A stretch of DNA of 64,000 nt from Bryobacterales bacterium (lineage in GTDB: Bacteria; Acidobacteriota; Terriglobia; Bryobacterales; Bryobacteraceae). Each line of letters opens with the position of its first letter. The first letter of the stretch is position 1. The stretch spans positions 5,389-69,388 of the forward strand of contig CAWITB010000010.1 in NCBI GenBank assembly GCA_963838885.1, in the 5' to 3' direction. Positions 16,799 through 35,635 of this stretch are shown piece by piece. The notes beneath the pieces were generated by a model, which worked only from the letters and a program-made list of their open reading frames with translations, was not told the origin of the DNA and did not search any database. Made by a program: the position numbers and the translations under genes.

Positions 16799-16960
16799 CG
16801 TTGTCCCCCTTTCCGCGGCTTCCTCCGCCGCCGGGAAACTCCAGCTTAGATTGGCTCATTTTTAAGGGACAAGGTCATAACTGCAACAACATGGCTTTCG
16901 ACGCCAGTCAAAAGAGAGCTCAATTTTGTCCAAGACTATTTCGTAACGGTTCACGTTAAC

Positions 16961-17212
16961 ATGTCTGATGTTCCTTCTGACCACTTCGCAACGGTCGGTT
17001 CGTTCGTCCGACAAGACTTCATAGACCTATCAAGCAAGCTGGAGAACACGGCATTTGAGTTCTTTAAAACGGAAGCGCGAGCCCTTCGTCTAAGCGATCT
17101 TACGGAGCACCAAAAATATCCACTTCAGGAAACGAAGGCTCGGCTTCAAAGCACAGTGTTTCTCAGTCGATGGGCAGAGATTCAGGCTATTCTGGCCAGC
17201 CGCCAAGCATAG
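16961..17212 (+). CDS. hypothetical protein (copy 1)
   Basis: 83-aa ORF in lower-GC DNA. Identical protein in copy 2, with one silent difference. The frame stays open upstream to the IS junction. Confidence 0.4.
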   Translation: MSDVPSDHFATVGSFVRQDFIDLSSKLENTAFEFFKTEARALRLSDLTEHQKYPLQETKARLQSTVFLSRWAEIQAILASRQA

Positions 17213-17344
17213 GTGCACTCTGCGTAAATCCCGCAGCGTCATTTGGAAGAAGTTTGCGAAATGGCCTCCCGTCCAGGGCTCGTGGGATTAGGCAAGTGCG
17301 TATGCTCGGACCGGAAACCGCCAATTCCGTTATCGAGAGGCAAC

Positions 17345-18409
17345 TCACAAGTTCCCGCCCGCGCACACGCGCGTCAGGCAGCGGAGCGTCTCGCGCGCCG
17401 TCCGCTCCCAGGTAAACCGGGCGGCGTGCTCGCGAGCTTGGGACGTTAGCGCGGGAGCGGTAGTCACGCGCTCGATTGCGCTCCGCAGTTCTTCATCGCT
17501 CGCGGGATCGAAAAACATGGCCGCGCCGCCGGCGATTTCGCGCAATGGCGGGATATCGGAGCAGGCCACGGGGACGCCGGCGGCCAGGGCTTCGAGGACC
17601 GGCATTCCGAAGCCTTCGAATGTCGAAGGATAGACGAACGCTCGGGCGCAACGGAACAGATCGTAAAGCTCCGACCGGGGTATCCAGCCGGTGAACCGCA
17701 CGCGTCCGTTCGCGGCGCTCTCGATCCGTTTTGCCGCAAAGCCGCGCAGCCCCACGACGACCAACTCCGGCGCATCCGGCATCGCGGCATGAACGCGCAG
17801 CAGCCGCTCCAGGTTCTTGTGCGGATGCAGCGTCGAAACGCAAAGTAGATAATCGCGAGGGTCGCGCCGCGCTGCGATGTCGAAAAACTCCGCTTCAACG
17901 CCATGGTGAATTACCATCGCATCCACACCGTAGAAATGTTTCAGATCATCGCGCGTCGCGTTTGAAACGGCAATCAATGCCTGCGAGCGCCGCGCCGAGC
18001 TCGACAGCAGCAGGTTCCAGAAGGGCAGTTCGAACCAGCGGAAATGCTCCGGATGGCGTTTATGTTGCAAATCGTGAAACACGGTGACGCTCGGGCAAGG
18101 ACACCACGCCGGACCTGTGAATCCCGGGTTCAGGAGCACATCGATGCGGTCGCGGCGCAGTGCGCTGGGCAGGGCGAACTGCTCGAAGAGGATGCGTCCT
18201 GGCCGGAAGGATGCTCGCACGCGCTGCGGCGCGGACTTGAAATTAGCGGCCATTGGCGCGAGGCCGGCGCCGGTCTCGGAGTTCGTAAATACCACGTATT
18301 CGTTTTCGGCATCGACGCGGGCAAGCGCGGCAAGCAGGTTACGCAGATAAATTTCAGTGCCGCCGACGCCGCCCGGAATCAGATAAAGCGCATTTACGCC
18401 GATGCGCAT
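17345..18409 (-). CDS. glycosyltransferase family 4 (GT-B, Glycos_transf_1) (copy 1)
   Basis: 354 aa; C-terminal E-x7-E-type region FVYPSTFEGFGMPVLEALAAGVPVACSD is typical of GT4 enzymes. Last gene of the 4-gene operon. Confidence 0.85.
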   Translation of the reverse strand: MRIGVNALYLIPGGVGGTEIYLRNLLAALARVDAENEYVVFTNSETGAGLAPMAANFKSAPQRVRASFRPGRILFEQFALPSALRRDRIDVLLNPGFTGPAWCPCPSVTVFHDLQHKRHPEHFRWFELPFWNLLLSSSARRSQALIAVSNATRDDLKHFYGVDAMVIHHGVEAEFFDIAARRDPRDYLLCVSTLHPHKNLERLLRVHAAMPDAPELVVVGLRGFAAKRIESAANGRVRFTGWIPRSELYDLFRCARAFVYPSTFEGFGMPVLEALAAGVPVACSDIPPLREIAGGAAMFFDPASDEELRSAIERVTTAPALTSQAREHAARFTWERTARETLRCLTRVCAGGNL

Positions 18410-18425
18410 CTTTGCAAGCCCGCGC

Positions 18426-20171
18426 TCACGGAGCTAAACGCGCGAGCTGTTCGCGCGCGACCTGATTTTCCGGGTCAAGGGCCAACGCATGCCGATAATC
18501 GTTCGCTGCCGAGCCGCGGTCCCCTTCGATGAGGTACACATTGCCCCGATTCACGTATGTCATCGCAAAGTTCGGATCAAGCCGGGCGGCGCGATTCAAC
18601 GCCTCCAGCGCTTCCGGCAATTTTTGCTCCTTCGCATACTCCATGCCAATCTGCGAATAAACGTGCGCGTTCGGCTCGAGCGCGGCCGCTTGCTGTAACT
18701 TGGACAGGGCATTCTCGCGATCGCCCATGCAATCGTAGGCGAGGCCCCAATCGAGCAGCAGCGAAAAATCCGGCTTCGCGATTGCCGCTGTCTGGGAATA
18801 CTGTTTCACTGCGCCGCCGCACCGGCCGGCGGCGTACATCGCATGCGCCAGTTGGAACGACGGCCGTACCTTATGAGGCGAGTCCGCGGCCGTCTGTTGC
18901 CACATGGCGATGGCGTCGCCCCACAGTAAATTGCGTTGATACGCGAGCGTCCCCTCGACCAACAGCAGCCCGCCGAGTGTCGCAATGACAACGCCGCGCC
19001 CCGCTTTCCAGCGCCGTACAAATTCGGCGGTAATCAGAAGCAGGCCGATGAACGGCAGGTAGAGGCGGCGCTCGGCGTAAACGTCTTTCAGCGGCACGAT
19101 GGACGACGTCGGCGCGAGCAGAAGAAGGAACACGAACCAGCCATAGGATGCTAGAGGAAAGCGGCGGCGGTATATCCAGGCCGCAACCGATACTCCGATC
19201 AGAGCCGCCAATCCCGCGATCGCGGCGGGATCGGAAACGGAATGCGTTACCGCAATATCGGGATCGAGATTCAGCCGGAACGGAAATACGAATAGAAAAA
19301 GATACTTCCAGATGACGCGGCATTCCGTCAAGAAATACTGATACCAGGCGATTCCTTTCACGTTGAAGCCCGCGGATGTCGCGTTCTTCAGGACAAACAC
19401 CCAGACGAACGCTCCCGCAAGCGCCGCGAGAATGGCCATCGTTCCGTAGAGTTTCCAGTTCCGCCGTATGGCCGCGGTCGTGAATCCCGGATTCCAGTAA
19501 AAATCGGTGAGGAGCAACAGCGCGGGCAGGATTACGGCGTGCTCCTTGCTCAAGCACGCCAGACCGAACAGAGCGAGAACCGCCGCAATGCGCCCCGGGG
19601 CGAGAGCGCCGTTTCCGTACAAGAAAACCACGAACGCCGCGAGGAAGAAACACACGCTCAAGGTTTCCGAGCGGCTGGCGATATAGCTCACCGCTTCCGT
19701 TTGAATCGGATGCAGCAGGAAGAGGCCGGCGGCGAATAGCGCAACCGATTCACGCGTCCATGTCCTCGCGGCCGCGGCCTTCTCGAGAAGCTTGCGCACA
19801 GCCAGAAGAATCAATCCGCCGTTGATCAGGTGCAGCAGCACATTGAAGAAGTGGTAGGAGTACGTGTTTTGTCCGCTCTGCTGAAAGTTGAGCCAATAAG
19901 AAAACATCAGGAGCGGGCGAAGCCCACCGATCCACGCCCGCAGAGGCGCTCTGGCGAAACCGTCGATGCGGTAGGGAAGATAATCGTCGTCGAGCAGGAA
20001 TGGCCCGTTCAGCGCCGGGCCGTAAACAGCGAAGACCACAAAAAGCGCTACCGCCGCGCCGATGACGATGGGCCACAAGGGCCGAGAGGCGGGCCGGCGC
20101 GGTGCGGGAGCCACGGCGGCCGCCGCCGTGCGCCCATTGACCGCCGACTTTCTTTTACCGCTTTTCACCAC
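18426..20171 (-). CDS. GT-C-fold membrane glycosyltransferase with C-terminal TPR domain (TMTC/PMT-like) (copy 1)
   Basis: The N-terminal ~390 aa has about 10 hydrophobic segments, the acidic loop motif FLLDDDYLPY after TM1, and HPIQTEAVSYIASRSE (resembles the HPxHTEAV motif I recall for DUF1736/TMTC). The C-terminal ~190 aa are TPR repeats. Confidence 0.7.
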   Translation of the reverse strand: MVKSGKRKSAVNGRTAAAAVAPAPRRPASRPLWPIVIGAAVALFVVFAVYGPALNGPFLLDDDYLPYRIDGFARAPLRAWIGGLRPLLMFSYWLNFQQSGQNTYSYHFFNVLLHLINGGLILLAVRKLLEKAAAARTWTRESVALFAAGLFLLHPIQTEAVSYIASRSETLSVCFFLAAFVVFLYGNGALAPGRIAAVLALFGLACLSKEHAVILPALLLLTDFYWNPGFTTAAIRRNWKLYGTMAILAALAGAFVWVFVLKNATSAGFNVKGIAWYQYFLTECRVIWKYLFLFVFPFRLNLDPDIAVTHSVSDPAAIAGLAALIGVSVAAWIYRRRFPLASYGWFVFLLLLAPTSSIVPLKDVYAERRLYLPFIGLLLITAEFVRRWKAGRGVVIATLGGLLLVEGTLAYQRNLLWGDAIAMWQQTAADSPHKVRPSFQLAHAMYAAGRCGGAVKQYSQTAAIAKPDFSLLLDWGLAYDCMGDRENALSKLQQAAALEPNAHVYSQIGMEYAKEQKLPEALEALNRAARLDPNFAMTYVNRGNVYLIEGDRGSAANDYRHALALDPENQVAREQLARLAP

Positions 20172-20904
20172 CCGCTAACTTCCTCCTTCTACCCTCGAAT
20201 TTCAGCACGTTCACAAACACTCCCAGCAGCACGTGAACAATGTAGTAGAGCGACTTGAGCGGCGTAATCGAACTGCGGCCGGCCATGCGCCGCCTCATCC
20301 GGCAGGATACTTCCTGAAATTGGAAACGCCGTCGCTGCAGAACGACCAGCGTCTCTATCTCAGGATATTCCAGGGGAAAGCTTTTCGTGAACACTTCAAG
20401 CGCCTGCTGGTTAACGCCCACAAACCCGGAGGTCGGATCGCGCACGGGCCTTCCTAGAATGGGCCGCAGCACCATGCGGAACACTTGTATTCCCATGGCG
20501 CGCACAATGCTCGAATGATAGCCGTCGCGCTCGTCGAAGCGCGATCCGATCACCATCTGGCAACCCGAGCCGCGCAACGCATCGAGAATGCGCGGAATGT
20601 CGCGCGGATCGTGCTGGCCGTCGCCATCGATGCGAATCACGTAATGATATCCCAGCTCGAAGGCAAGCTTGTAGCCGGCCTGGACGCATCCGCCCAAGCC
20701 CAGATGATGCGGCAGAGGCAGTACGTCCGCGCCCGCGGCCGCCGCGGCGCTTTTCGTCGCGTCGAGCGAGCAATCGTCGATCACCAACACCGGCGCGCCT
20801 GGCAGAACTTCATGCAACTCCCGCACGACGCTCGCAATGGCGGCCTCTTCGTTGAAGGCCGGAATGATCACCAGGTAATCGTCGGGGCCGGTGGCGAGCC
20901 TCAC
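20155..20904 (-). CDS. GT2 polyprenyl-phosphate glycosyltransferase (Dpm1/GtrB-like) (copy 1)
   Basis: 249 aa; VIIPAFNEE, VIDDCSLD, IRIDGDGQHD (DxD) and a C-terminal hydrophobic segment YYIVHVLLGVFVNVL. Overlaps the upstream and downstream genes. Confidence 0.8.
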   Translation of the reverse strand: MRLATGPDDYLVIIPAFNEEAAIASVVRELHEVLPGAPVLVIDDCSLDATKSAAAAAGADVLPLPHHLGLGGCVQAGYKLAFELGYHYVIRIDGDGQHDPRDIPRILDALRGSGCQMVIGSRFDERDGYHSSIVRAMGIQVFRMVLRPILGRPVRDPTSGFVGVNQQALEVFTKSFPLEYPEIETLVVLQRRRFQFQEVSCRMRRRMAGRSSITPLKSLYYIVHVLLGVFVNVLKFEGRRRKLAGGEKR

Positions 20905-21908
20905 AGCGCCGCGACCTTGCGCGGAGCGATGGAATACTCGCGGAGCAGGCGATGAAACTGCCTCGGACTCAGGCGCCGCCGTATTCGCCGGCGCTGCTCA
21001 CGCAGGCGGCCGATGTTGCGCAGCAGTGCGGCGTGCGCGCGCAGGACCGCAACAACCAAGCCCGCGGGACGATGTCCCGCCTGCCGATAAGCAGCCGTCG
21101 TCCCCTGGCCTTTCCACGCGTACATTGCGTGCCAGAAGTAGCGCGCCAGAGAGTAGAACGGCGCCGCCCACAGCATACGAGGCGGAAAATTCTTGGCAAG
21201 CAAAAAGAGGCGATTGCGCTCCACATAGTACGCCTTCAAGGGCGAAGCGCGGCCGGCCGAATGCGAGTAGCGATGCTCCACCACGGCATCCGGCGCGTAA
21301 ACGCATTCCCACGCCGCCCAGCGCGCGCGAAGCCCCAAATCGGTGTCCTCGCAATACAAGAAAAAGGATTCGTCGAAGAGACCGATCTCATCGAGCATCT
21401 CGCGCTTATACAGAGCGGCGCATCCGCTTGGCAGTAAAGCATGGCGGCGCCGCGCATAGCGATCGCTCTCCTGCCCGGCGACATCCAAATGGCCGCACTG
21501 CTTGCTGCTGCCGTCGCCGCACACGAGCATTCCGGCGGAGTCCAGCCGTCCCTCGCCCAGCAAGCGTATTTGCGAAGCGCACATCCCGATCTCGTGCCGT
21601 TCCGCGATGGCGGCCACTAGCGAGGCGAGCCATTCCGGCCTCGGCTCCGCGTCGTCGTTTAATGTTGCGACATACATGGAGGCGGAAGCGCGAATCGCTT
21701 GGTTGACGGCGGCGCCAAATCCTACGTTCGCATCGTTGTAAATCACATGGACGCCATCGCGGGCGGTAACGGCGCGCCGTCCGCTGTTATCGACGACGAT
21801 GACTTCGAAATCCCGCAGTGTCTGCCGCGCGAGCGCCTCCAGACAAGCCTCTAATGCATCGTCCGCGGCCAAAGTCGGCACTACTACCGTCACGCTCGGA
21901 TTCGGCAA
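20901..21908 (-). CDS. GT2 family glycosyltransferase (copy 1)
   Basis: 335 aa; VTVVVPT...VIVVDNSG...ATLNDDAEP...FLYCEDTDLGLRA is typical of rhamnosyl/galactosyl-type GT2. ATGA overlap with the next gene. Confidence 0.8.
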   Translation of the reverse strand: MPNPSVTVVVPTLAADDALEACLEALARQTLRDFEVIVVDNSGRRAVTARDGVHVIYNDANVGFGAAVNQAIRASASMYVATLNDDAEPRPEWLASLVAAIAERHEIGMCASQIRLLGEGRLDSAGMLVCGDGSSKQCGHLDVAGQESDRYARRRHALLPSGCAALYKREMLDEIGLFDESFFLYCEDTDLGLRARWAAWECVYAPDAVVEHRYSHSAGRASPLKAYYVERNRLFLLAKNFPPRMLWAAPFYSLARYFWHAMYAWKGQGTTAAYRQAGHRPAGLVVAVLRAHAALLRNIGRLREQRRRIRRRLSPRQFHRLLREYSIAPRKVAAL

Positions 21909-22067
21909 AGCTTGATTTTACTATCCGGGCGAAGCGCGGGAGTTGACGGGCCCGAGGGCGTCCACAAATCGCCGGGCTCTCGCCGGGTACGTCTCAGGAG
22001 GGTGCCCAGCGCTTCACCTCGATTCGCCGAGTACCGCAGTCGCTGGCTTTGCCTGTGAACGGTAGGC

Positions 22068-22412
22068 GTGCCAGAGGACCGGACCTCGACCGCGATTGGC
22101 GTACTGCCTGGTAGATGCGATCGCTCGAAGCGCGGCGAAGCCATCGAGAAATATACCGGCGGTGCATACAGTCAGCACAACCGGCTAATGCTTTACCCGC
22201 AAGGCGAAGCAATACCCCGGAAAGCGTCCACTCCAAGCGCGCGGATCGCTGAAGGCAACTATGCCGTGCTGCATTGCCGGGAGGAGCGGCAGGGGATCGC
22301 GATTGGGCCGGGATCGACATTTCCGGCTCGATGAGAACGGCGAAATGTCAAGCAATGGGATGTGCTCCAGGTCGCGCCGGAGGCGTCGGCCAACAGTAAC
22401 ACCATGTTGTGA
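22068..22412 (+). pseudogene. decayed SnoaL-like/NTF2-fold gene (copy 1), approximate bounds
   Basis: Pieces in different frames: AIEKYTGGAYSQHN..., IAEGNYAVLHC..., WAGIDI / FRLDENGE... The C-terminal ...WDVLQVAPEASANSNTML-stop is readable in copy 2. The pattern resembles SnoaL-like proteins ending ...GKIVEHWDVLQ. Confidence 0.4.
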
Positions 22413-22443
22413 GGGCCGTTGGCGTGATATCTTGACTATTCAA

Positions 22444-23562
22444 ATGCGAATCGCTCACTTCGCGGTGCTCCTGGCCGCCGCGCCGCTCCTGACCGCCGCT
22501 CCCAAACGGTACTTCGTTTACTTCGGCACCTACACTGGCCCGAAGAGCAAAGGCATCTACGTCGCCCGCTTCGACGCGGGTACGGGCAAAGTAGAGCCGC
22601 TCAGCGTAGCCGCCGAAATGAAGAACCCGTCCTTCGTCGCGCCTCACCCCAACGGCCGCTTCTTATACGCCGTCAGCGAGGAACGAGGCGGGAGCGCCAG
22701 CGCCTTCTCCATCGACCGCAATAGCGGAGCTCTGACGCTGCTCAACACGGTATCGTCCAAAGGAAACGGGCCCTGTTACGCGCGCGTCGACAAGACCGGC
22801 CGGGCGCTGTTGGTGGCCAATTACGGCAGCGGCACCTTCGCGGTTTTCCCCATCGAAGCCGACGGCAAGCTCAAGGAAGCCTCCGCTACCATTCAGGACC
22901 AGGGCAAGGCAAGCATGCCCGTGCGCCAGGGCGGCCCGCACGCGCACTCGTTGAATCCTTCGAATGACGACCGCTTTGCCGTGGGCGCCGACCTCGGCCT
23001 CGACAAGCTCTTCGTCTTTAAATTCGACGCCGCGGCCGGTACTCTCACGCCCAACAATCCGCCTTATGCGGAACTCAAGCCCGGATCCGGACCGCGCCAT
23101 TTCGCTTTCCATCCGAATGGGAAGTTCGCGTACGTAACCGATGAAATCTCCTCGAACGTGGTCGCCTTCCGCTGGGACGCCGCGGCCGGAACGCTGCACG
23201 AGCTTCAAACTATCTCGACTATTCCAGCGGACTTCAAAGGCGAGAACACGACAGCCGAAATCCTGGTCCATCCCTCCGGAAATTTTCTCTATGATTCGAA
23301 TCGCGGAGCCGATAGCATAGCCGTGTTTCGCATCGACAAAAGCAAAGGTACGCTCACGGCGGTGGACCATACCTCGACCCAAGGAAACGTCCCGCGCGGC
23401 TTCGGCATCGATCCGACAGGCTCGTTCCTGATCGCCGGTAATCAGAAATCGGACAATATTGTGGTGTTTCGAATCGACAAGAGCAGCGGTAAATTAACTC
23501 CGACGGGTCAAACGCTGGAGGTCGGCGGCCCGGTTTGCGTAAAATTCGTCCCGCTTCAATAG
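22444..23562 (+). CDS. secreted 7-bladed beta-propeller lactonase (6-phosphogluconolactonase, YbhE/Pgl type) (copy 1)
   Basis: Signal peptide MRIAHFAVLLAAAPLLTAAP, then YFVYFGTYTG...GIYVARFD...NPSFVAPHPNGRFLYAV...GPRHFAFHPNGKFAYV... are typical lactonase propeller repeats. Confidence 0.8.
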   Translation: MRIAHFAVLLAAAPLLTAAPKRYFVYFGTYTGPKSKGIYVARFDAGTGKVEPLSVAAEMKNPSFVAPHPNGRFLYAVSEERGGSASAFSIDRNSGALTLLNTVSSKGNGPCYARVDKTGRALLVANYGSGTFAVFPIEADGKLKEASATIQDQGKASMPVRQGGPHAHSLNPSNDDRFAVGADLGLDKLFVFKFDAAAGTLTPNNPPYAELKPGSGPRHFAFHPNGKFAYVTDEISSNVVAFRWDAAAGTLHELQTISTIPADFKGENTTAEILVHPSGNFLYDSNRGADSIAVFRIDKSKGTLTAVDHTSTQGNVPRGFGIDPTGSFLIAGNQKSDNIVVFRIDKSSGKLTPTGQTLEVGGPVCVKFVPLQ

Positions 23563-23593
23563 CGCCTCAAGTCAGCCCAATATAAAGCGCCGT

Positions 23594-24521
23594 TCATTTG
23601 CCGAATCTGAAATCCCAAGAGTTTCGTGACAGGCCGTTCAGCTCTTCGAGTGAAAACCCGAACTCGCCGGCTGCAATCTCAAACTCACGCCGTAAAGAAG
23701 TCCCAAACAGCGCCGGATCGTCGCTGTTTAACGTAATCGGCACGCCCGCATCGAAGAGGCTCCCGCACGGGATGCGCGCTCAAAGACGCGACCGCCCCCG
23801 TTCGCACATTCGAGGTGATGCAAATCTCCAATGGCACGCCGCGGTCTCGTAGTGCCGTCAACAAAGTCGCATCCCGAGCGGCGGCGATTCCGTGTCCAAT
23901 GCGCTCCGCCCCGATGGCGAGCGCCGCCCATACCGACTCCGGCCCGGCGGTTTCCCCGGCATGACACACCAGGCGCAAGCCGCCGTTGCGCGCATACGCG
24001 AATACATCGCGGAACCATTCAGCCGGTCCGCGAATTTCGTCCCCCCCGATCCCGAACGCGACCACGCCCTGGTCCCGCCGCGAAACGGCGAACTCGGCGA
24101 CGCGCCTGCCCGGCTCCGCCCCGAACTGCCGCACGGCGTCGAGTATCCAGAACACCTTCACGCGCGCGCGCAGCGATTCCCGCCATAACGCTTCATATAC
24201 ATCCGCAAGGGACTGCTCCTTCCAGAGGACGACTCCGGCCGAAAGCGTCACCTCGGCGTATTCGATGCGCTGTTCGGCGAAATGCTCGAACATTCGGCGC
24301 GCCGCAATCGCGTAGTGCTCCGGCGACCGCAGCTTGCGCGTGACCCAAACGAAGGCGCGCAGAAATCCCGCGAAATCGTTAAATGTGGTATTCGCGACGA
24401 CTTCCTCGCAGGTCAGCGCAGGATCGATCTCCAGCAAGGCCTCCACCCCGATCGCGCCCTCCAGATGAACGTGCAGCTCGGCAAGGGGCGCCGCTAAAAG
24501 ATCGCCGGACATCCTTGCCAT
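23594..24521 (-). pseudogene. add: adenosine deaminase, frameshifted near the 3-prime end (copy 1)
   Basis: LAELHVHLEGAI..., CHAGE..., ERIGHGI... An extra G near 23757 (gaggctcc vs gagctcc in copy 2) replaces the conserved tail FDAGVPITLNSDDPALFG with out-of-frame residues. Confidence 0.75.
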
Positions 24522-24627
24522 GGTAACGGCAGCACGCTAACGGCCGTGACGCGAGGGAGCGGCGATCACATCTCTTGCATGCGCCGAACCGGATCCCGCC
24601 GGCGCTGCGCCACGGCGCCGAGCGCCA

Positions 24628-25233
24628 TTACATGGCCGCGTCGCCGTCCAGACTGCGCCACAGATACCACGATGCGATCGAGCAGTAAGGATGCCAGCGG
24701 CGGCCGAGTTTTTCGATTCTGGCGGGCTTGGGGAGCGCGCGCATGCGATATGCTTTGCGGATGGCGGAGCGGACGCCGAAGTCGCCGGTGGGCAGGATGT
24801 TGGGACGGCGCAGGGCGAAAATCAGGAACATGTGCGCGGTCCAGACGCCCACTCCCTTAACGCGCGTGAGGCGCTCGATCACCTCTTCGTCGGTCATTCG
24901 CGGGAAACTGCTGAAGTCAATCTCACCCGAGCGGGTGCGCTCGGCCAAGTCGCGGATGTAGGCTGTCTTCTGGCCGGAAAGTCCGGCGGCGCGCATCTGT
25001 TCGGCCGTAAGACCAAGGATGGCATCGGGCGTAATGTTTCCTTGCGGCAGCGCGCCGATCAAGCGCGCCAGTATGATGGCCGCAGCCTTCCCGTTAAGCT
25101 GCTGATATACAATAGATCGCACCAGCGACTGAAAATCCGGGTCGCGAAAATCGATGCGGCATTCCCCGACGCGCTCGATGATGGCCGCAAGCACCGGATC
25201 CGCCTGCTTTAGATGAACAATGGCTTCCTGCAT
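24628..25233 (-). CDS. DNA-3-methyladenine glycosylase II family protein (HhH-GPD) (copy 1)
   Basis: 201 aa; LTRVKGVGVWTAHMFLIFALRRPNILPTGDFGVRSAI is the HhH-GPD motif region with the catalytic Asp context. Confidence 0.8.
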   Translation of the reverse strand: MQEAIVHLKQADPVLAAIIERVGECRIDFRDPDFQSLVRSIVYQQLNGKAAAIILARLIGALPQGNITPDAILGLTAEQMRAAGLSGQKTAYIRDLAERTRSGEIDFSSFPRMTDEEVIERLTRVKGVGVWTAHMFLIFALRRPNILPTGDFGVRSAIRKAYRMRALPKPARIEKLGRRWHPYCSIASWYLWRSLDGDAAM

Positions 25234-25278
25234 GGAACTGGCCGCGCTAGCGGCGCATCTATTGAACAGTATAAATAC

Positions 25279-26598: not shown

Positions 26599-27771
26599 TC
26601 ATTTGGAAGAAGTTTGCAATATGAAATATCGTCCAGGGCTCTGTGGGATTAGGCACGTGCGTATGCTCGGACCGGAAACCGCCAATTCCGTTATCGAGAG
26701 GCAACTCACAAGTTCTCGCCCGCGCAAACGCGCGTCAAGGCAGCGGAGCGTCTCGCGGACCGTCCGCTCCCAGGTAAACCGGGCGGCATGCTCGCGAGCT
26801 TCGGACGTTAGCGCGGGAGCGGTAGACACGCTCTCGATTGCGCTCCGCAGTTCTTCATCGCTGGCGGGATCGAAAAACATGGCGGCGCCGCAGGCGATCT
26901 CGCGCAACGGCGGGATATCGGAACAGGCCACGGGGACGCCGGCGGCCATGGCTTCGAGGACCGGCATTCCGAAGCCTTCGAACGTCGAAGGATAGACGAA
27001 CGCTCGGGCGCAACGGAATAGCTCGTAAAGCTCCGTTCGCGGTATCCAGCCAGTGAACCGCACGCGTCTGTTCGCGGCGCTCTCGATCCGCTTTGCCGCA
27101 AAGCCGCGCAGCCCCACGACGACCAACTCCGGCGCATCCGGCATCGCGGCATGAACGCGCAGCAGCCGCTCCAGATTCTTGTGCGGATGCAGCGTCGAAA
27201 CGCAAAGCAGATAATCGCGAGGGTCGCGCCGCGCTGCAATGTCGAAAAACTCCGCTTCAACGCCATGATGAATTACCATCGCATCCACACCGTAGAAATG
27301 TTTCAGATCATCGCGCGTCGCGTTTGAAACGGCAATCAATGCCTGCGAGCGCCGCGCCGAGCTCGACAGCAGCAGGTTCCAGAAGGGCAGTTCGAACCAG
27401 CGGAAATGCTCCGGATGGCGTTTATGCTGCAAATCGTGAAATACGGTGACGCTCGGGCAAGGACACCACGCTGGACCTGTGAATCCCGGGTTCAGGAGCA
27501 CATCGATGCGGTCGCGGCGCAGTGCGCTGGGCAGGGCGAACTGCTCGAAGAGGATGCGTCCTGGCCGGAAGGATGCTCGCACGCGCTGCGGCGCGGACTT
27601 GAAATTTGCGGCCATTGGCGCGAGGCCGGCGCCGGTCTCGGAGTTCGTAAATACCACGTATTCGTTTTCGGCATCAACGCGGGCAAGCGCAGCAAGCAGG
27701 TTACGCAGGTAAATTTCAGTGCCGCCGACGCCGCCCGGAATCAGATAAAGCGCATTTACGCCGATGCGCAT
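26599..27771 (-). CDS. glycosyltransferase family 4 (copy 2) with altered, extended C-terminus
   Basis: A 1-nt insertion about 12 codons before the copy-1 stop (gtcaaggcag vs gtcaggcag, near 26737) removes the stop and adds about 36 unrelated residues. The rest is about 97 percent identical by eye. Confidence 0.75.
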   Translation of the reverse strand: MRIGVNALYLIPGGVGGTEIYLRNLLAALARVDAENEYVVFTNSETGAGLAPMAANFKSAPQRVRASFRPGRILFEQFALPSALRRDRIDVLLNPGFTGPAWCPCPSVTVFHDLQHKRHPEHFRWFELPFWNLLLSSSARRSQALIAVSNATRDDLKHFYGVDAMVIHHGVEAEFFDIAARRDPRDYLLCVSTLHPHKNLERLLRVHAAMPDAPELVVVGLRGFAAKRIESAANRRVRFTGWIPRTELYELFRCARAFVYPSTFEGFGMPVLEAMAAGVPVACSDIPPLREIACGAAMFFDPASDEELRSAIESVSTAPALTSEAREHAARFTWERTVRETLRCLDARLRGRELVSCLSITELAVSGPSIRTCLIPQSPGRYFILQTSSK

Positions 27772-27787
27772 CTTTGCAAGCCCGCGC

Positions 27788-29533
27788 TCACGGAGCTAAA
27801 CGCGCGAGCTGTTCGCGCGCGACCTGATTTTCCGGGTCGAGGGCCAACGCATGCCGATAATCGTTCGCTGCCGAGCCGCGGTCCCCTTCTATGAGGTACA
27901 CATTGCCCCGATTCACGTATGTCATCGCAAATTTTGGATCAAGGCGGGCGGCGCGATTCAACGCCTCCAGCGCTTCCGGCAATTTTTGCTCCTTCGCATA
28001 TTCCATGCCAATCTGCGAATAAACGTGCGCGTTCGGCTCGAGCGCGGCCGCTTGCTGTAACTTGGACAGGGCATTCTCGCGATCGCCCATGCAATCGTAG
28101 GCGAGGCCCCAATCGAGCAGCAGCGAAAAATCCGGCTTCGCGATTGCCGCTGTCTGGGAATACTGTTTCACTGCGCCGCCGCACCGGCCGGCGGCGTACA
28201 TCGCATGCGCCAGTTGGAACGACGGCCGTACCTTATGAGGCGAGTCCGCGGCCGTCTGTTGCCACATGGCGATGGCGTCGCCCCACAGTAAATTGCGTTG
28301 ATACGCGAGCGTCCCCTCGACCAACAGCAGCCCGCCGAGTGTCGCAATGACAACGCCGCGCCCCGCTTTCCAGCGCCGTACAAATTCGGCGGTAATCAGA
28401 AGCAGGCCGATGAACGGCAGGTAGAGGCGGCGCTCGGCGTAAACGTCTTTCAGCGGCACGATGGACGACGTCGGCGCGAGCAGAAGAAGGAACACGAACC
28501 AGCCATAGGATGCTAGAGGAAAGCGGCGGCGGTATATCCAGGCCGCAACCGATACTCCGATCAGAGCCGCCAATCCCGCGATCGCGGCGGGATCGGAAAC
28601 GGAATGCGTTACCGCAATATCGGGATCGAGATTCAGCCGGAACGGAAATACGAATAGAAAAAGATACTTCCAGATGACGCGGCATTCCGTCAAGAAATAC
28701 TGATACCAGGCGATTCCTTTCACGTTGAAGCCCGCGGATGTCGCGTTCTTCAGGACAAACACCCAGACGAACGCTCCCGCAAGCGCCGCGAGAATGGCCA
28801 TCGTTCCGTAGAGTTTCCAGTTCCGCCGTATGGCCGCGGTCGTGAATCCCGGATTCCAGTAAAAATCGGTGAGGAGCAACAGCGCGGGCAGGATTACGGC
28901 GTGCTCCTTGCTCAAGCACGCCAGACCGAACAGAGCGAGAACCGCCGCAATGCGCCCCGGGGCGAGAGCGCCGTTTCCGTACAAGAAAACCACGAACGCC
29001 GCGAGGAAGAAACACACGCTCAAGGTTTCCGAGCGGCTGGCGATATAGCTCACCGCTTCCGTTTGAATCGGATGCAGCAGGAAGAGGCCGACGGCGAATA
29101 GCGCAACCGATTCACGCGTCCATGTCCTCGCGGCCGCGGCCTTCTCGAGAAGCTTGCGCACAGCCAGAAAAATCAATCCGCCGTTGATCAGGTGCAGCAG
29201 CACATTGAAGAAGTGGTAGGAGTACGTGTTTTGTCCGCTCTGCTGAAAGTTGAGCCAATAAGAAAACATCAGGAGCGGGCGAAGGCCACCGATCCACGCC
29301 CGCAGAGGCGCTCTGGCGAAACCGTCGATGCGGTAGGGAAGATAATCGTCGTCGAGCAGGAATGGCCCGTTCAGCGCCGGACCGTAAACAGCGAAGACCA
29401 CAAACAGCGCTACCGCCGCGCCGATGAGGATGGGCCACAAGGGCCGAGAGGCGGACCGGCGCGGTGCGGGAGCCACGGCGGCCGCCGCCGTGCGCCCATT
29501 GACCGCCGACTTTCTTTTACCGCTTTTCACCAC
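27788..29533 (-). CDS. GT-C-fold membrane glycosyltransferase with C-terminal TPR domain (copy 2)
   Basis: 581 aa, five amino-acid differences from copy 1 in the ORF track. Confidence 0.7.
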   Translation of the reverse strand: MVKSGKRKSAVNGRTAAAAVAPAPRRSASRPLWPILIGAAVALFVVFAVYGPALNGPFLLDDDYLPYRIDGFARAPLRAWIGGLRPLLMFSYWLNFQQSGQNTYSYHFFNVLLHLINGGLIFLAVRKLLEKAAAARTWTRESVALFAVGLFLLHPIQTEAVSYIASRSETLSVCFFLAAFVVFLYGNGALAPGRIAAVLALFGLACLSKEHAVILPALLLLTDFYWNPGFTTAAIRRNWKLYGTMAILAALAGAFVWVFVLKNATSAGFNVKGIAWYQYFLTECRVIWKYLFLFVFPFRLNLDPDIAVTHSVSDPAAIAGLAALIGVSVAAWIYRRRFPLASYGWFVFLLLLAPTSSIVPLKDVYAERRLYLPFIGLLLITAEFVRRWKAGRGVVIATLGGLLLVEGTLAYQRNLLWGDAIAMWQQTAADSPHKVRPSFQLAHAMYAAGRCGGAVKQYSQTAAIAKPDFSLLLDWGLAYDCMGDRENALSKLQQAAALEPNAHVYSQIGMEYAKEQKLPEALEALNRAARLDPKFAMTYVNRGNVYLIEGDRGSAANDYRHALALDPENQVAREQLARLAP

Positions 29534-30266
29534 CCGCTAACTTCCTCCTTCTACCCTCGAATTTCAGCACGTTCACAAACACTCCCAGCAGCACGTGAAC
29601 AATGTAGTAGAGCGACTTGAGCGGCGTAATCGAACTGCGGCCGGCCATGCGCCGCCTCATCCGGCAGGATACTTCCTGAAATTGGAAACGCCGTCGCTGC
29701 AGAACGACCAGCGTCTCTATCTCAGGATATTCCAGGGGAAAGCTCTTCGTGAACACTTCGAGCGCCTGCTGGTTAACGCCCACAAACCCGGAGGTCGGAT
29801 CGCGCACGGGCCTTCCTAGAATGGGCCGTAGCACCATGCGGAACACTTGTATTCCCATGGCGCGCACAATGCTCGAATGATAGCCGTCGCGCTCGTCGAA
29901 GCGCGATCCGATCACCATCTGGCAACCCGAGCCGCGCAACGCATCGAGAATGCGCGGAATGTCGCGCGGATCGTGCTGGCCGTCGCCATCGATGCGAATC
30001 ACGTAATGATATCCCAGCTCGAAGGCAAGCTTGTAGCCGGCCTGGACGCATCCGCCCAAGCCCAGATGATGCGGCAGAGGCAGTACGTCCGCGCCCGCGG
30101 CCGCCGCGGCGCTTTTCGTCGCGTCGAGCGAGCAATCGTCGATCACCAACACCGGCGCGCCTGGCAGAACTTCATGCAACTCCCGCACGACGCTCGCAAT
30201 GGCGGCCTCTTCGTTGAAGGCCGGAATGATCACCAGGTAATCGTCGGGGCCGGTGGCGAGCCTCAC
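29517..30266 (-). CDS. GT2 polyprenyl-phosphate glycosyltransferase (Dpm1/GtrB-like) (copy 2)
   Basis: Protein identical to copy 1 in the ORF track. The nucleotide differences I found are silent. Confidence 0.8.
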   Translation of the reverse strand: MRLATGPDDYLVIIPAFNEEAAIASVVRELHEVLPGAPVLVIDDCSLDATKSAAAAAGADVLPLPHHLGLGGCVQAGYKLAFELGYHYVIRIDGDGQHDPRDIPRILDALRGSGCQMVIGSRFDERDGYHSSIVRAMGIQVFRMVLRPILGRPVRDPTSGFVGVNQQALEVFTKSFPLEYPEIETLVVLQRRRFQFQEVSCRMRRRMAGRSSITPLKSLYYIVHVLLGVFVNVLKFEGRRRKLAGGEKR

Positions 30267-31270
30267 AGCGCCGCGACCTTGCGCGGAGCGATGGAATACT
30301 CGCGGAGCAGGCGATGAAACTGCCTCGGACTCAGGCGCCGCCGTATTCGCCGGCGCTGCTCACGCAGGCGGCCGATGTTGCGCAGCAGTGCGGCGTGCGC
30401 GCGCAGGACCGTAACAACCAAGCCCGCGGGACGATGTCCCGCCTGCCGATAAGCAGCCGTCGTCCCCTGGCCTTTCCACGCGTACATGGCGTGCCAGAAG
30501 TAGCGCGCCAGAGAGTAGAACGGCGCCGCCCACAGCATACGAGACGGAAAATTCTTGGCAAGCAAAAAGAGGCGATTGCGCTCCACATAGTACGCCTTCA
30601 AGGGCGAAGCGCGGCCGGCCGAATGCGAGTAGCGATGCTCCACCACGGCATCCGGCGCGTAAACGCATTCCCACGCCGCCCAGCGCGCGCGAAGCCCCAA
30701 ATCGGTGTCCTCGCAATACAAGAAAAAGGATTCGTCGAAGAGACCGATCTCATCGAGCATCTCGCGCTTATAGAGGGCGGCGCATCCGCTTGGCAGTAAA
30801 GCATGGCGGCGCCGCGCATACCGATCGCTTTCCTGCCCGGGGACATCCAAATGGCCGCACTGCTTGCTGCTGCCGTCGCCGCACACGAGCATTCCGGCGG
30901 AGTCCAGCCGTCCCTCGCCCAGCAAGCGTATTTGCGAAGCGCACATCCCGATCTCGTGCCGTTCCGCGATGGCGGCCACTAGCGCTGCGAGCCATTCCGG
31001 CCGCGGCTCCGCGTCATCGTTCAATGTTGCGATATATAGGGCGGTGGAAGCGCGAATGGCTTGGTTGACGGCCGCGCCAAATCCTACGTTCGCGCCGTTG
31101 TAAATCACGTGGACGCCATCGCGGGCGGTAACGGCGCGCCGTCCGCTGTTATCGACGACGATGACTTCGAAATCCCGCAGTGTCTGCCGCGCGAGCGCCT
31201 CCAGACAAGCCTCCAATGCATCGTCCGCGGCCAAAGTCGGCACTACTACCGTCACGCTCGGATTCGGCAA
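30263..31270 (-). CDS. GT2 family glycosyltransferase (copy 2)
   Basis: 335 aa, about 9 substitutions relative to copy 1. Confidence 0.8.
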   Translation of the reverse strand: MPNPSVTVVVPTLAADDALEACLEALARQTLRDFEVIVVDNSGRRAVTARDGVHVIYNGANVGFGAAVNQAIRASTALYIATLNDDAEPRPEWLAALVAAIAERHEIGMCASQIRLLGEGRLDSAGMLVCGDGSSKQCGHLDVPGQESDRYARRRHALLPSGCAALYKREMLDEIGLFDESFFLYCEDTDLGLRARWAAWECVYAPDAVVEHRYSHSAGRASPLKAYYVERNRLFLLAKNFPSRMLWAAPFYSLARYFWHAMYAWKGQGTTAAYRQAGHRPAGLVVTVLRAHAALLRNIGRLREQRRRIRRRLSPRQFHRLLREYSIAPRKVAAL

Positions 31271-31428
31271 AGCTTGATTTTACTATCCGGGCGAAGCGCG
31301 GGAGTTGACGGGCCCGAGGGCGTCCGCAATCGCCGGGCTCTCGCCGGGTACGTCTCAGGAGGGTCCCCAGCGCTTCACCTCGATGCGCCGAGTACCGCAG
31401 TGGCTGGCTTTGCCTGTGAACGGTAGGC

Positions 31429-31773
31429 CGCCAGAGGACCGGACCTCGACCGCGATTAGCGTACTGCCTGGTAGATGCGATCGCTCGAAGCGCGGCGAAG
31501 CGATCGAGAAATATACCGGCGGTGCATACAGTCAGCACAACCGGCTAATGCTTTACCCGCAAGGCGAAGCAATACCCCGAAAAGCGTCCACTCCAAGCGC
31601 GCGGATCGCTGAAGGCAACTATGTCGTGCTGCATTGCCGGCAGGAGTGGCAGGGGATCGCGATTGGGCCGGGATCGACATTTCCGGCTCGATGAGAACGG
31701 CGAAATTGTCAAGCGATGGGACGTGCTCCAGGTCGCGCCGGAGGCGTCGGCCAACAGTAACACCATGTTGTGA
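31429..31773 (+). pseudogene. decayed SnoaL-like/NTF2-fold gene (copy 2), approximate bounds
   Basis: Same fragments as copy 1. The C-terminal FRLDENGEIVKRWDVLQVAPEASANSNTML-stop is intact here but out of frame with the upstream pieces. Confidence 0.4.
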
Positions 31774-31804
31774 GGGCCGTTGGCGTGATATCTTGACTAT
31801 TCAA

Positions 31805-32924
31805 ATGCGAATCGCTCATTTCGCGGTGCTCCTGGCCGCCGCGCCCCTCCTGACCGCCGCTCCAAAACGGTATTTCGTCTACTTCGGCACCTACACTGGC
31901 CCGAAGAGCAAAGGCATCTACGTCGCTCGCTTCGACGCGGGTACGGGCAAAGTAGAGCCGCTCAGCGTAGCCGCCGAAATGAAGAACCCGTCTTTCGTCG
32001 CGCCTCACCCCAACGGCCGTTTCTTATACGCCGTCAGCGAGGAACGAGGCGGGAGCGCCAGCGCCTTCTCCATCGACCGCAATAGCGGAGCTCTGACGCT
32101 GCTCAACACGGTATCGTCCAAAGGAAACGGGCCCTGCTACGCGCGCGTCGACAAGACCGGCCGGGCGCTGTTGGTGGCCAATTACGGCAGCGGCACCTTC
32201 GCGGTTTTCCCCATCGAAGCCGACGGCAAGCTCAAGGAGGCCTCCGCGACAATTCAGGACCAAGGCAAGGCAAGCATGCCCGTCCGCCAGGGCGGCCCGC
32301 ACGCGCACTCGCTGAATCCCTCGAATGACGACCGCTTCGCCGTGGGCGCCGACCTCGGCCTCGACAAGCTCTTCGTCTTTAAATTCGACGCCGCGGCCGG
32401 TACTCTCACGCCCAACAATCCGCCTTATGCGGAACTCAAGCCCGGATCCGGACCACGCCATTTCGCTTTCCATCCCAACGGGAAGTTCGCGTACGTAACC
32501 GATGAAATCTCCTCGAACGTGGTCGCCTTCCGCTGGGACGCCGCGGCCGGAACGCTGCACGAGCTTCAAACTATCTCGACTATTCCAGCGGACTTCAAAG
32601 GCGAGAACACGACAGCCGAAATCCTGGTCCATCCCTCCGGAAATTTTCTCTATGATTCGAATCGCGGAGCCGATAGCATAGCCGTGTTTCGCATCGACAA
32701 AAGCAAAGGTACGCTCACCGCCGTGTACCAAACCTCGACGCAAGGAAACGTCCCGCGCGGCTTCGGCATCGATCCGACCGGCTCGTTTCTGATCGCCGGT
32801 AATCAGAAATCGGACAATATCGTGGTCTTCCGCATCGACAAGAGCCAGCGGTAAATTGACGCCTACCGGTCAAACGCTGGAGGTCGGCGGCCCCGTTTGC
32901 GTGAAATTCGTCCCGCTTCAATAG
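31805..32924 (+). pseudogene. beta-propeller lactonase, frameshifted near the 3-prime end (copy 2)
   Basis: An extra C (agccagcgg vs agcagcgg, near 32836) truncates the ORF at 32854. The copy-1 tail GKLTPTGQTLEVGGPVCVKFVPLQ is still encoded out of frame up to TAG 32922-32924. Confidence 0.75.
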
Positions 32925-32957
32925 CGCCTCAAGTTAGCCGAATAGTAAAGCCGCCGT

Positions 32958-33885
32958 TCACTTGCCGAATCTGAAATTCCAGGAGTTACGCGACAAGCCC
33001 TTCAGCTCTTCGCGTGAAAACCCGAACTCGCCGGCTGCAATCTCGAACTCGCGCGGCAAAGAAGTCCCAAACAGCGCCGGATCGTCGCTGTTCAACGTAA
33101 TCGGCACGCCCGCATCGAAGAGCTCCCGCACGGGATGCGCGCTCAAAGACGCGACCGCCCCCGTTCGCACATTCGAGGTGATGCAAATTTCCAGTGGCAC
33201 GCGGCGGTCTCGTAGGGCCGTCATCAGAATCGGATCCCGAGCGGCGGCGATTCCGTGTCCAATGCGCTCCGCCCCGATGGCGAGCGCCGCCCATACCGAC
33301 TCCGGCCCGGCGGTTTCCCCGGCATGACACACCAGCCGCAATCCGCCGTCGCGCGCGTACGCGAATACGTCGCGGAACCATTCCGCCGGTCCGCGAATTT
33401 CGTCCCCCCCGATCCCGAACGCGACCACGCCCTGGTCCCGCCGCGAAACGGCGAACTCGGCGACGCGCCTGCCCGGCTCCGCCCCGAACTGCCGCACGGC
33501 GTCGAGTATCCAGAACACCTTCACGGGCGCGCGCAGCGATTCCCGCCATAACGCTTCATATACATCCGCAAGGGACTGCTCCTTCCAGAGGACGACTCCG
33601 GCCGAAAGCGTCACCTCGGCGTATTCGATGCGCTGTTCGGTGAAACGCTCGAACATTCGGCGCGCCGCAATCGCGTAATGCTCCGGCGACCGTCAATTTA
33701 CGGGTGACCCAAACGAAGGCGCGCAGAAATCCGGCGAAATCGTCGAATGTGGTATTCGCGACGATTTCCCCGCAGGTCAGCGCAGGATCGATCTCCAGTA
33801 AGGCCTCCACCCCGATCGCGCCCTCCAGATGAACGTGTAGCTCGGCAAGGGGGGCCGCTAAAAGATCGCCGGACATCGTTGCCAT
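32958..33885 (-). pseudogene. add: adenosine deaminase, frameshifted in the N-terminal third (copy 2)
   Basis: Split into ORFs 33556..33885 and 32958..33656. The break coincides with a 13-nt AT-rich substituted patch (33691-33703) that is 1 nt longer than in copy 1. The C-terminal tail is intact here. Confidence 0.75.
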
Positions 33886-33991
33886 GGTAACGGCAGCACG
33901 CTAGCGGCCGTGACGCGAGGGAGCGGCGATCACATCTCTTGCATGCGCCGAACCGGATCCCGCCGGCGCTGCGCCACGGCGCCGAGCGCCA

Positions 33992-34597
33992 TTACATGGC
34001 CGCGTCGCCGTCCAGACTGCGCCACAAATACCACGATGCGATCGAGCGGTAAGGATGCCAGCGGCGGCCGAGTTTTTCGATTCTGGCGGGCTTGGGGAGC
34101 GCCCGCATGCGATATGCTTTGCGGATGGCGGAGCGGACGCCGAAGTCGCCGGTGGGCAGGATGTTGGGACGGCGCAGGGCGAAAATCAGGAACATGTGCG
34201 CGGTCCACACGCCCACTCCCTTAACGCGCGTGAGGCGCTCGATCACCTCTTCGTCGGTCATTCGCGGGAAACTGCTGAAGTCAATCTCACCCGAGCGGGT
34301 GCGCTCGGCCAAGTCGCGGATGTAGGCTGTCTTCTGGCCGGAAAGTCCGGCGGCGCGCATCTGTTCGGCCGTAAGACCAAGGATGGCATCGGGCGTAATG
34401 TTTCCTTGCGGCAGCGCGCCGATCAAGCGCGCCAGTATGATGGCCGCAGCCTTCCCGTTAAGCTGCTGATATACAATAGATCGCACCAGCGACTGAAAAT
34501 CCGGGTCGCGAAAATCGATGCGGCATTCCCCGACGCGCTCGATGATGGCCGCAAGCACCGGATCCGCCTGCTTTAGATGAACGATGGCTTCCTGCAT
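33992..34597 (-). CDS. DNA-3-methyladenine glycosylase II family protein (copy 2)
   Basis: 201 aa, one substitution (C to R) relative to copy 1. Confidence 0.8.
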   Translation of the reverse strand: MQEAIVHLKQADPVLAAIIERVGECRIDFRDPDFQSLVRSIVYQQLNGKAAAIILARLIGALPQGNITPDAILGLTAEQMRAAGLSGQKTAYIRDLAERTRSGEIDFSSFPRMTDEEVIERLTRVKGVGVWTAHMFLIFALRRPNILPTGDFGVRSAIRKAYRMRALPKPARIEKLGRRWHPYRSIASWYLWRSLDGDAAM

Positions 34598-34642
34598 GGA
34601 ACTGGCCGCGCGAGCGGCGCATCTATTGAACAGTATAAATAC

Positions 34643-35635
34643 ATGCGTACCGCCGCCCTGTTCGCTTTTCCGGCGCTGCTACTTGCACAACCCGCCGCTC
34701 CGCCCGCCTCTCCCCAGCAGGAGCCTGCTCCTCCCAGCATTCAAGTCAACGTTGAGCTCGTTAACGTCCTGTTTACCGTGCGCGACAAGCGCGGCGGATT
34801 GGTCGGCAACCTGAACAAGGACGACTTCACCATTGCCGAAGACGGCAAACAGCAAGAGATCAAGTACTTTACGCGCGAGACCGATATTCCGATCACCATC
34901 GGACTCCTCGTCGACGTGAGCGCCAGTCAGGGCAATCTGATCGGGATCGAACAGCAGGCCGCCTATCAATTTTTCGGTCAGGTCTTGCGGCCCAAGGATT
35001 TGGCATTTTTGATCAGCTTTGGCGCCGATGCCGATCTTCTGCAGGACTATACCAATTCGACGAAACTACTTCGCGCCGGCTTGCAGGATCTTAAGGTCAA
35101 CTCGAGCGTGGGCGGGCTCAGCCCCGGGCCCGTGCCCACGGTATACCAGCCTCGCGGGACGATTCTCTACGACGCCGTCTATCTGGCGGCGCACGATCAG
35201 CTAAAAGGCCAAGTCGGGCGCAAGGCGCTGGTTCTGATCACGGACGGCGTAGACGAGGGCAGCCGCTACAAAATTCAGGACGCGATCGAAGCGGCGCAAA
35301 AAGCCGACGCGGTGATTTACAGCATCTATTACGTCGACCGCGGATTCTATATGCGCAACGGCGGGGGATTCAACTTTGGGGGCGGCGGTGAAGGCTACCT
35401 GAATCGCATGTCGAATGAGACCGGCGGTCACGTGTTCAAGGTGGACCGCAAGCACACGCTCGAAGACGTGTTCAAAGAGATTCAGGACGATATGCGGTCG
35501 CAGTACGCTATCGCGTACTCTCCCACGAACGCCATCAAAGACGGCACCTTCCGGCGCATCGACATTCACGCCAAGGACAAGGATCTGAAGATTCAGGCCC
35601 GCAAGGGTTATTACGCCATCAAGCCGGAACAATAG
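34643..35635 (+). CDS. acidobacterial VWFA-related protein, intact (copy 2)
   Basis: Signal peptide MRTAALFAFPALLLAQ. VNVELVNVLFTVRDKRGGLVGNLNKDDFTIAEDGKQQEIKYF, VWA core, and C-terminal ...FRRIDIHAKDKDLKIQARKGYYAIKPEQ. Confidence 0.8.
   Translation: MRTAALFAFPALLLAQPAAPPASPQQEPAPPSIQVNVELVNVLFTVRDKRGGLVGNLNKDDFTIAEDGKQQEIKYFTRETDIPITIGLLVDVSASQGNLIGIEQQAAYQFFGQVLRPKDLAFLISFGADADLLQDYTNSTKLLRAGLQDLKVNSSVGGLSPGPVPTVYQPRGTILYDAVYLAAHDQLKGQVGRKALVLITDGVDEGSRYKIQDAIEAAQKADAVIYSIYYVDRGFYMRNGGGFNFGGGGEGYLNRMSNETGGHVFKVDRKHTLEDVFKEIQDDMRSQYAIAYSPTNAIKDGTFRRIDIHAKDKDLKIQARKGYYAIKPEQ

Follow-up and report, generated by a model that had tools for sequence, protein, structure and literature searches.

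In genuine segmental duplications of bacterial chromosomes, the end of one segment is joined directly to the start of the next at short repeats, rRNA operons, or insertion sequences (ISs), and the copies are near-identical and unstable. Long near-identical direct repeats should be lost quickly through RecA-dependent recombination unless they are selected for. Assemblies, too, can contain direct repeats, and the heterotype false duplications of diploid eukaryotic assemblies are an error comparable to the one considered here. For long-read metagenome assemblers, the documented errors include the concatenation of variants specific to subpopulations, direct duplications without support from any read, and sequence that does not exist (bioRxiv 10.1101/2025.04.22.649783). 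The subject of this work is a direct repeat of about 9.3 kb in the DNA of a Bryobacterales bacterium, located in a 64-kb window (contig CAWITB010000010.1 of assembly GCA_963838885.1, positions 5,389–69,388; all coordinates below are window positions unless another locus is named). We propose that this repeat is most probably a feature of the sequence file and not of the organism, and we put at about 0.7 the probability that it is an assembly artifact in which two strain haplotypes have been concatenated in silico.

Comparison of the window with itself by BLAST gives a single long direct match, between 16939–26254 and 26299–35619, which spans 9324 columns at 97.565% identity with 216 mismatches and 11 gap openings. 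Since the runner-up among the self-matches of the window is only 64 nt long and nothing else in it is comparable, chance can be excluded as the origin of the repeat. The initial annotation had described two collinear, head-to-tail copies of about 9.36 kb whose offset drifts from 9360 to 9365, and this description is confirmed by self-BLAST and by a repeat finder, which gives a spacing between copy starts that passes from 9360 to 9365. The per-site comparison that it proposed has now been made and yields 97.6% identity across the whole block. Global alignment of the two copies places ten indels of 1–2 nt within the repeat. The earliest base that can be paired unambiguously is 16943/26303; BLAST pushes the start of copy 2 to 26299, that is, into the run of T residues described below. 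As delimited by self-BLAST, alignment, and inspection of the sequence, copy 1 occupies 16939–26254, and its 3′ end lies short of the stop codon of an acidobacterial VWFA gene. Copy 2 (26304–35619, by self-BLAST and alignment) runs unbroken into the stop codon of its own VWFA gene and on into the right flank. Two collinear copies of one segment, placed head to tail, are what a tandem segmental duplication is expected to present.

The joint between the copies is of a different character. Copy 1 closes at 26254 (...GGTTATTACGCCAT) and is followed by AGG, a run of 44 T residues (T44, 26258–26301), and GG, after which copy 2 opens with TAACGG. This 49-nt filler (26255–26303) has no homology to either block boundary. 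At the equivalent point, copy 2 reads ...GCCATCAAGCCGGAACAATAG, from which it follows that the VWFA gene of copy 1 has been cut five codons (15 nt) before its stop. T44 is the sole homopolymer longer than 8 nt in the window, and the longest homopolymer in 1.9 Mb of DNA from 161 fetched comparison contigs is 11 nt. Neither the junction sequence nor the self-BLAST of the window revealed any microhomology, IS, or other mobile element at the join, and scans for tRNAs, Rfam families, and terminators at the block boundaries gave nothing informative. A genuine tandem duplication should show a novel joint at which the block end abuts the block start at a repeat, an IS, or a microhomology, and there is no such joint here. 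An abrupt, non-biological join with a broken gene at the joint is what a false duplication made by an assembler should show, and this is what T44 and the cut VWFA gene provide. The filler is non-templated, of low complexity, and technical-looking. Three features of the locus were missing from the initial annotation: the 44-nt poly-T, the truncated VWFA gene of copy 1, and the single-base frameshifts in both copies.

The differences between the copies provide a second line of evidence. The in-frame coding differences comprise 109.5 synonymous and 38.5 non-synonymous changes, with a synonymous divergence (dS) of 0.055 and a ratio of non-synonymous to synonymous divergence (dN/dS) of 0.12, which ranges from 0 to 0.27 among individual genes; third codon positions hold 108 of the 148 differences. 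The low dN/dS and the third-position bias argue that the differences are the product of real evolution under purifying selection, and the possibility that the substitutions are sequencing noise was rejected on the same two grounds. Even the VWFA gene, despite being truncated in copy 1, displays 16 synonymous and only two non-synonymous differences (dN/dS 0.04). The low ratios, that of the junction-cut VWFA gene included, indicate that both lineages were under constraint for nearly all of the time since they diverged and that the junction is much younger than the divergence. Judged from the sequences of the copies, they appear to have evolved as functional alleles in separate genomes and to have been joined only recently, whether in a cell or in a computer. 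Near-identity, or relaxed constraint after duplication, would be expected of a genuine tandem duplication, and neither is seen. Rather, the copies differ in the manner of orthologous alleles of co-existing strains, in nucleotide identity (97.6%), in dN/dS, and in the mosaic distribution of their differences. Identical tracts of 1089 nt (18640–19728) and 582 nt (20468–21049) exceed the simulated maximum of 562 nt, and such mosaic divergence fits inter-strain recombination and gene conversion equally well.

The quality of the contig itself must also be taken into account. The essential dxr gene of the methylerythritol phosphate (MEP) pathway (minus strand; open reading frames (ORFs) 41464–42240 and 41034–41549) is split by a single-base frameshift near 41500, in the context CGCGCG (...WLFDLEPAR / EIDVVVHPQS...), and this split is almost certainly a consensus error of the assembly. 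The essential glmS gene (ORF 37357–39075) switches frame near 39060, about 50 codons before its end, with the canonical C-terminus lying in the +1 frame; this is a second assembly-type frameshift in an essential gene. The two remaining frameshifts in the flanks are those of hicB and of orfA of an IS3-family element. Within the repeat, the glycosyltransferase family 4 (GT4) and lactonase genes are frameshifted only in copy 2, the VWFA gene only in copy 1, and the adenosine deaminase gene (add) in each copy, though not at the same site. The repeat thus has five coding frameshifts in about 16 kb, and the flanks have four in about 38 kb of coding sequence, which is a 2.9-fold excess (one-sided p = 0.10). 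Such an excess would be expected from a lower read depth per copy, with the reads of the two strains divided between two false copies, and real decay would also yield it. Because add is broken twice and essential genes are broken as well, the indels favor error over decay; for the same reason, that is, add broken in both copies and single-copy essential genes broken in the flanks, complementary pseudogenization of true duplicates was rejected. A simple homopolymer-error model was also tried for the indels and does not fit, their contexts not being long homopolymers. With dxr, glmS, hicB, and add all frameshifted, the contig is demonstrably indel-prone.

A clue to the provenance of the contig comes from the lactonase. 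A protein search with it returned a cluster, at 90% identity, of three NCBI proteins (P0122, P0121, and P0001). P0122 and P0121 are the lactonases of copy 1 (22444–23562) and copy 2 (31805–32854), and both lie on one NCBI contig of 79,293 bp. P0001, which is 92% identical in amino acid sequence, comes from the closest relative, GCA_963795935.1 (contig CAWCJO010000010.1; L161 hereafter), a Nanopore metagenome-assembled genome (MAG) of Microflora Danica assigned to the Bryobacterales. In the Microflora Danica project, the Nanopore reads were assembled by Flye (--meta --nano-hq), and Medaka was run once (PMC12313526). In the 21-kb locus of L161, the lactonase gene is present as a single copy and its neighbors differ from those in the window. 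At 4831–6942 of that locus, a pyridoxal-dependent decarboxylase is called as two adjacent same-strand ORFs of 296 and 180 amino acids, both of which match PF00282; these are followed by a 104-residue ORF without a match, and the neighboring DHDPS gene encodes only 131 residues. The split decarboxylase and the short DHDPS gene indicate that the L161 MAG carries frameshift noise of the type found in the window. By analogy with its nearest relatives, which are Nanopore MAGs, the window probably derives from noisy long-read metagenome data like those of Microflora Danica.

Taken together, the technical-looking linker, a divergence older than the junction, the noisy contig, and the want, to our knowledge, of any bacterial joining mechanism that leaves a 44-nt homopolymer point to haplotype concatenation. 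The scenario would be as follows. Two co-existing strains of one species would be about 2.4% apart over the locus, and they would probably differ structurally at its edges as well, where an IS3 insertion (left) and a hicAB module (right) would distinguish them. The assembler would have put both alleles end to end, rather than choosing one allele or emitting two contigs. The resulting order would be the left flank with the IS and the allele of strain A, cut at 26254, then the junk T44, and then the allele of strain B with the right flank, while the real chromosome would hold the block once. We infer both this two-strain history and the long-read metagenomic origin of the contig. The initial annotation had left the choice between haplotype concatenation and a genuine, retained amplification of a glycosylation module; the former gains from T44, the allelic dN/dS, and the error-prone contig, and the latter loses ground for reasons given below.

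Several considerations weigh against concatenation by the assembler. Assemblers normally require at least one read path before they set two copies in tandem, and it is unlikely that two molecules of the same 10-kb locus from a soil community would be joined at random in one chimeric read. No technical process can be named that gives exactly T44; none of the other Nanopore MAG contigs examined has a run of this kind, and a search of the literature on poly-T joins in Nanopore assemblies found no specific known cause. The sequencing technology of the source contig is, moreover, one that we infer. Gene conversion between genuine tandem copies could also have left the identical tracts of 1089 and 582 nt, and the frameshift excess of the block, at p = 0.10, falls short of statistical significance and is only suggestive.

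The gene content of the block was checked by profile searches (Pfam and NCBIfam), and the integrity of the frames was checked by tblastn with homologues. The claim that both copies carry the same genes in the same order is largely upheld, and the proteins differ between copies by 0 (the small ORF and the shorter GT2) to about 3%, matching the range from identical to about 3% that had been estimated by eye. The profiles support GT4, two GT2, lactonase, add, HhH-GPD, and VWFA genes; the SnoaL-like relic that had been placed between the longer GT2 gene and the lactonase gene found no family support in these searches. The block begins with a small ORF of 83 codons (copy 1, 16961–17212, plus strand; copy 2, 26321–26572), recognized from the ORF list, whose protein is identical in the two copies, with one synonymous difference in the DNA, and which has no Pfam or NCBIfam match. 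It lies between the IS or the poly-T, as the case may be, and the GT4 gene. The GT4 gene of copy 1 (17345–18409, minus strand) is intact, encoding 354 residues, and its end coincides with those of its homologues by Pfam and by tblastn with homologues from loci L001–L008. In copy 2 (26599–27771, minus strand), alignment and tblastn locate an extra base at about 26737; the frame is lost within a few codons of the normal stop, and the resulting 390-residue ORF ends in a spurious tail of 36 residues.

Next comes a multi-pass membrane protein of 581 residues with C-terminal tetratricopeptide repeats (TPRs) (18426–20171, minus strand, and 27788–29533; five amino acid differences). The initial annotation called it GT-C/TPR. 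The TPRs are confirmed; the GT-C-like assignment is plausible from architecture only, namely roughly 8–10 hydrophobic segments and an LDDDY motif that follows the first of them. Of the two GT2 proteins identified by profile search, the one of 249 residues resembles polyprenyl-phosphate sugar synthases (20155–20904, minus strand, and 29517–30266) and is identical in the two copies, and the one of 335 residues (20901–21908, minus strand, and 30263–31270) has nine amino acid differences. The lactonase (PF10282, 419 bits; of the 7-bladed propeller type) is encoded on the plus strand and is intact, with 372 residues, in copy 1; in copy 2, an extra C at 32845 shifts the frame, so that about 26 C-terminal residues are lost and 349 residues are encoded. 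The add frameshifts were located by tblastn with the L161 Add protein and the list of indels, near residue 251 (about 23758–23770) in copy 1 (23597–24521, minus strand) and near residue 64 (about 33692–33694) in copy 2 (32961–33885, minus strand). The HhH-GPD (AlkA-like) DNA glycosylase gene found by profile search (24628–25233, minus strand, and 33992–34597) differs by one amino acid. The VWFA gene of copy 1 (25213–26254, plus strand) is frameshifted at about 26069 in addition to its truncation at the poly-T. In copy 2 (34577–35635, plus strand), it is intact, encodes 352 residues, and matches TIGR03436 (270.7 bits) as well as homologues over their full length. A second VWA-domain gene (PF13519), a distant relative of the duplicated VWFA gene, is found in the left flank at 5080–6114 (minus strand), and its product is 46% identical in amino acid sequence to a VWFA homologue in L148.

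The closest GTDB relatives among the matches listed are Bryobacterales/Terriglobia MAGs with 55–63% amino acid identity, and the top JGI metagenome matches to the VWFA protein reach 80–81%. The GT2–GT2–GT-C/TPR–GT4 module is syntenic and present in a single copy in the 21-kb loci of eight Bryobacterales/Terriglobia MAGs (L001–L008, at about 10000–15000 in each), with the order conserved relative to 17345–21908 of the window and 45–71% amino acid identity. In these relatives, a gap of about 500 bp separates the small GT2 gene from that of the TPR protein, whereas the window has none. From its sequence, this four-gene set looks like a lipid-carrier-dependent periplasmic glycosylation system. The block as a whole holds, besides these four genes, those for the lactonase, Add, the AlkA-like glycosylase, and the VWFA protein; it is a mixed stretch of chromosome and not a glycosylation module, as had been supposed, and even the closest relative does not share its gene order. 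Two loci, L081 and L082, have a VWFA gene followed by a glmS homologue (88–90% amino acid identity), as is seen after copy 2, which indicates that the right-hand context of copy 2 is native. Synteny with relatives is confined to the four-gene GT module and the alkA/VWFA(/glmS) neighborhood. The inspection of homologous loci that the initial annotation recommended thus shows the GT module and the lactonase gene in single copy elsewhere, but relatives cannot settle the copy number of the block in the strain of the window.

The two edges of the block adjoin elements of their own. To the left, an IS3-family element (15432–16877, minus strand; 1446 bp, with orfA and orfB) was delimited from Pfam matches (rve, rve_3, and HTH_21), its ORFs, and alignment of its imperfect inverted repeats of about 42 nt. 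It has its own 4-bp TAAC target duplication and lies 61 nt left of copy 1, outside the block. Self-BLAST finds no second copy of it in the window, and there is none at the joint. Its orfA is interrupted at an 8-nt A/T run (16655–16662), upstream of the usual orfA/orfB frameshift site, and the interruption is either an error or a sign of a decayed element. An IS-mediated, composite-transposon-like duplication was ruled out, given the one IS3 copy with its own TAAC duplication, 61 nt outside the block. To the right, a hicA/hicB toxin–antitoxin pair (35695–36100, plus strand), recognized by HicA_toxin PF07927 and three-frame translation, lies directly after the block, between the VWFA gene and glmS; hicB is frameshifted after ...NNLSAW, at about 35940. 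The VWFA–glmS interval is shorter in L081 and L082 than in the window, and the hicAB interval may be strain-variable.

Two smaller sets of direct matches were noted in the right flank. Between 56516–56778 and 58854–59036 there are two short matches (58 nt at 81% and 64 nt at 84%), by which an intergenic stretch past the glyoxalase gene resembles the isocitrate dehydrogenase gene (55395–57035, minus strand) in its 5′ part; a relic of a gene fragment may be the explanation. The other set is a direct repeat, about 50 nt long and 88% identical (44294–44344 and 44473–44520), that covers the 3′ end of a 2-hydroxyacid dehydrogenase ORF (43327–44334) and the start of a minus-strand ORF (44476–44832).

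If the tandem arrangement in the deposited contig were taken at face value, this uncultured Bryobacterales bacterium would stably hold two diverged alleles of a 9.3-kb segment head to tail, as a natural merodiploid whose second allele was imported from a sister strain and joined through a long T tract by end joining or by an RNA-templated process. A circularized incoming fragment might have integrated by a single crossover, or a plain tandem duplication might have had one of its copies overwritten patchwise by homologous recombination. An imported allele is compatible with the allelic divergence and its low dN/dS, and patchy recombination or gene conversion with the mosaic pattern of identical and divergent tracts. 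The region also differs in arrangement from that of the closest relative and adjoins the IS3 element and the hicAB module. We nonetheless regard merodiploidy as rather unlikely, since no known bacterial joining mechanism would account for the filler, since RecA-dependent recombination should quickly remove a 9.3-kb direct repeat of 97.6% identity that is not selected for, and since the genes of the block share no coherent function on whose dosage selection would act. The indels, which affect both copies of add and the essential genes of the flanks, also resemble errors and not decay.

An old in-situ duplication, kept for a higher dosage of the glycosylation genes and with copies that diverged in place, would agree with the head-to-tail structure and its measurable divergence, and also with the GT genes being the best-conserved part of the block, where the two identical tracts lie. 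Redundant copies should, however, experience relaxed selection, and the dN/dS values, down to 0.04 in the truncated VWFA gene, do not show this; by our own estimate from site counts, about 180 non-synonymous changes would be expected if one copy were neutral, against the 38.5 observed. The unit is, moreover, an arbitrary stretch that includes add, the alkA-like gene, the lactonase gene, and the VWFA gene, the GT module is in single copy in all eight relatives examined, and the poly-T junction is left unexplained, so that we find this history very unlikely. The position of the T tract is suggestive of something else, a retro-duplication, in which a polyadenylated minus-strand transcript was reverse-transcribed and the cDNA was integrated, leaving its poly-A as T44 at the low-coordinate end of copy 2. 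T44 is exactly at the end of copy 2 that matches the 3′ end of a minus-strand transcript, and that strand carries the GT genes (all four), the alkA-like gene, and add. Nothing else fits. The genes of the block occupy both strands, the RNA would have to be a 9.3-kb transcript initiated antisense inside the VWFA gene, no reverse transcriptase domain was seen among the scanned and annotated ORFs of the window, and no target-site duplication was found around copy 2. A recent retrocopy should also be near-identical to its source and not 2.4% diverged under purifying selection. We know of no retro-duplication of this kind in bacteria and give this explanation almost no credence.

For now, the repeat should be treated as a false duplication. 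If it is an artifact, the deposited contig exceeds its true length by about 9.4 kb and carries some 9–10 spurious extra genes, and analyses of gene counts, paralogy, or “GT expansion” that include this MAG are inflated. On the same reading, consensus errors disrupt a number of its ORFs, namely those of add, lactonase, GT4, VWFA, dxr, and glmS. The locus also offers a signature by which long-read MAGs can be screened without reads: a direct repeat on the kilobase scale, divergence at the within-species level, low dN/dS, and a low-complexity linker. Were the tandem real, on the other hand, a soil acidobacterium would provide a rare example of a merodiploid segment that is both stable and diverged, and the chemistry of its junction would be unexplained.

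Among known systems, the RecA- or IS-mediated segmental duplications of Salmonella and E. coli share with this locus a head-to-tail direct repeat of several kilobases over unrelated neighboring genes. The differences are the 49-nt filler with T44 in place of a direct joint, the one IS located 61 nt outside the block, and copies that differ by 2.4% with a dN/dS of 0.12. Campbell-type merodiploidy would likewise set two alleles of one segment directly in tandem, and their divergence would be of the allelic, selected kind. Such integration requires a circular intermediate whose closure point becomes the junction, and the junction here is a homopolymer; the vector, integrase, or plasmid sequence expected of it is not present here. 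The false duplications of Trigodet et al. (bioRxiv 10.1101/2025.04.22.649783) consist of two variants of a locus from close subpopulations placed in succession on one contig, and they likewise present a long direct repeat, a sharp and unnatural join, possibly with read-less sequence at the join, and indels that break ORFs. Their cases come from PacBio HiFi data and were established by read clipping and coverage, whereas ours is known from the sequence alone, and the homopolymer linker present here is not described among them.

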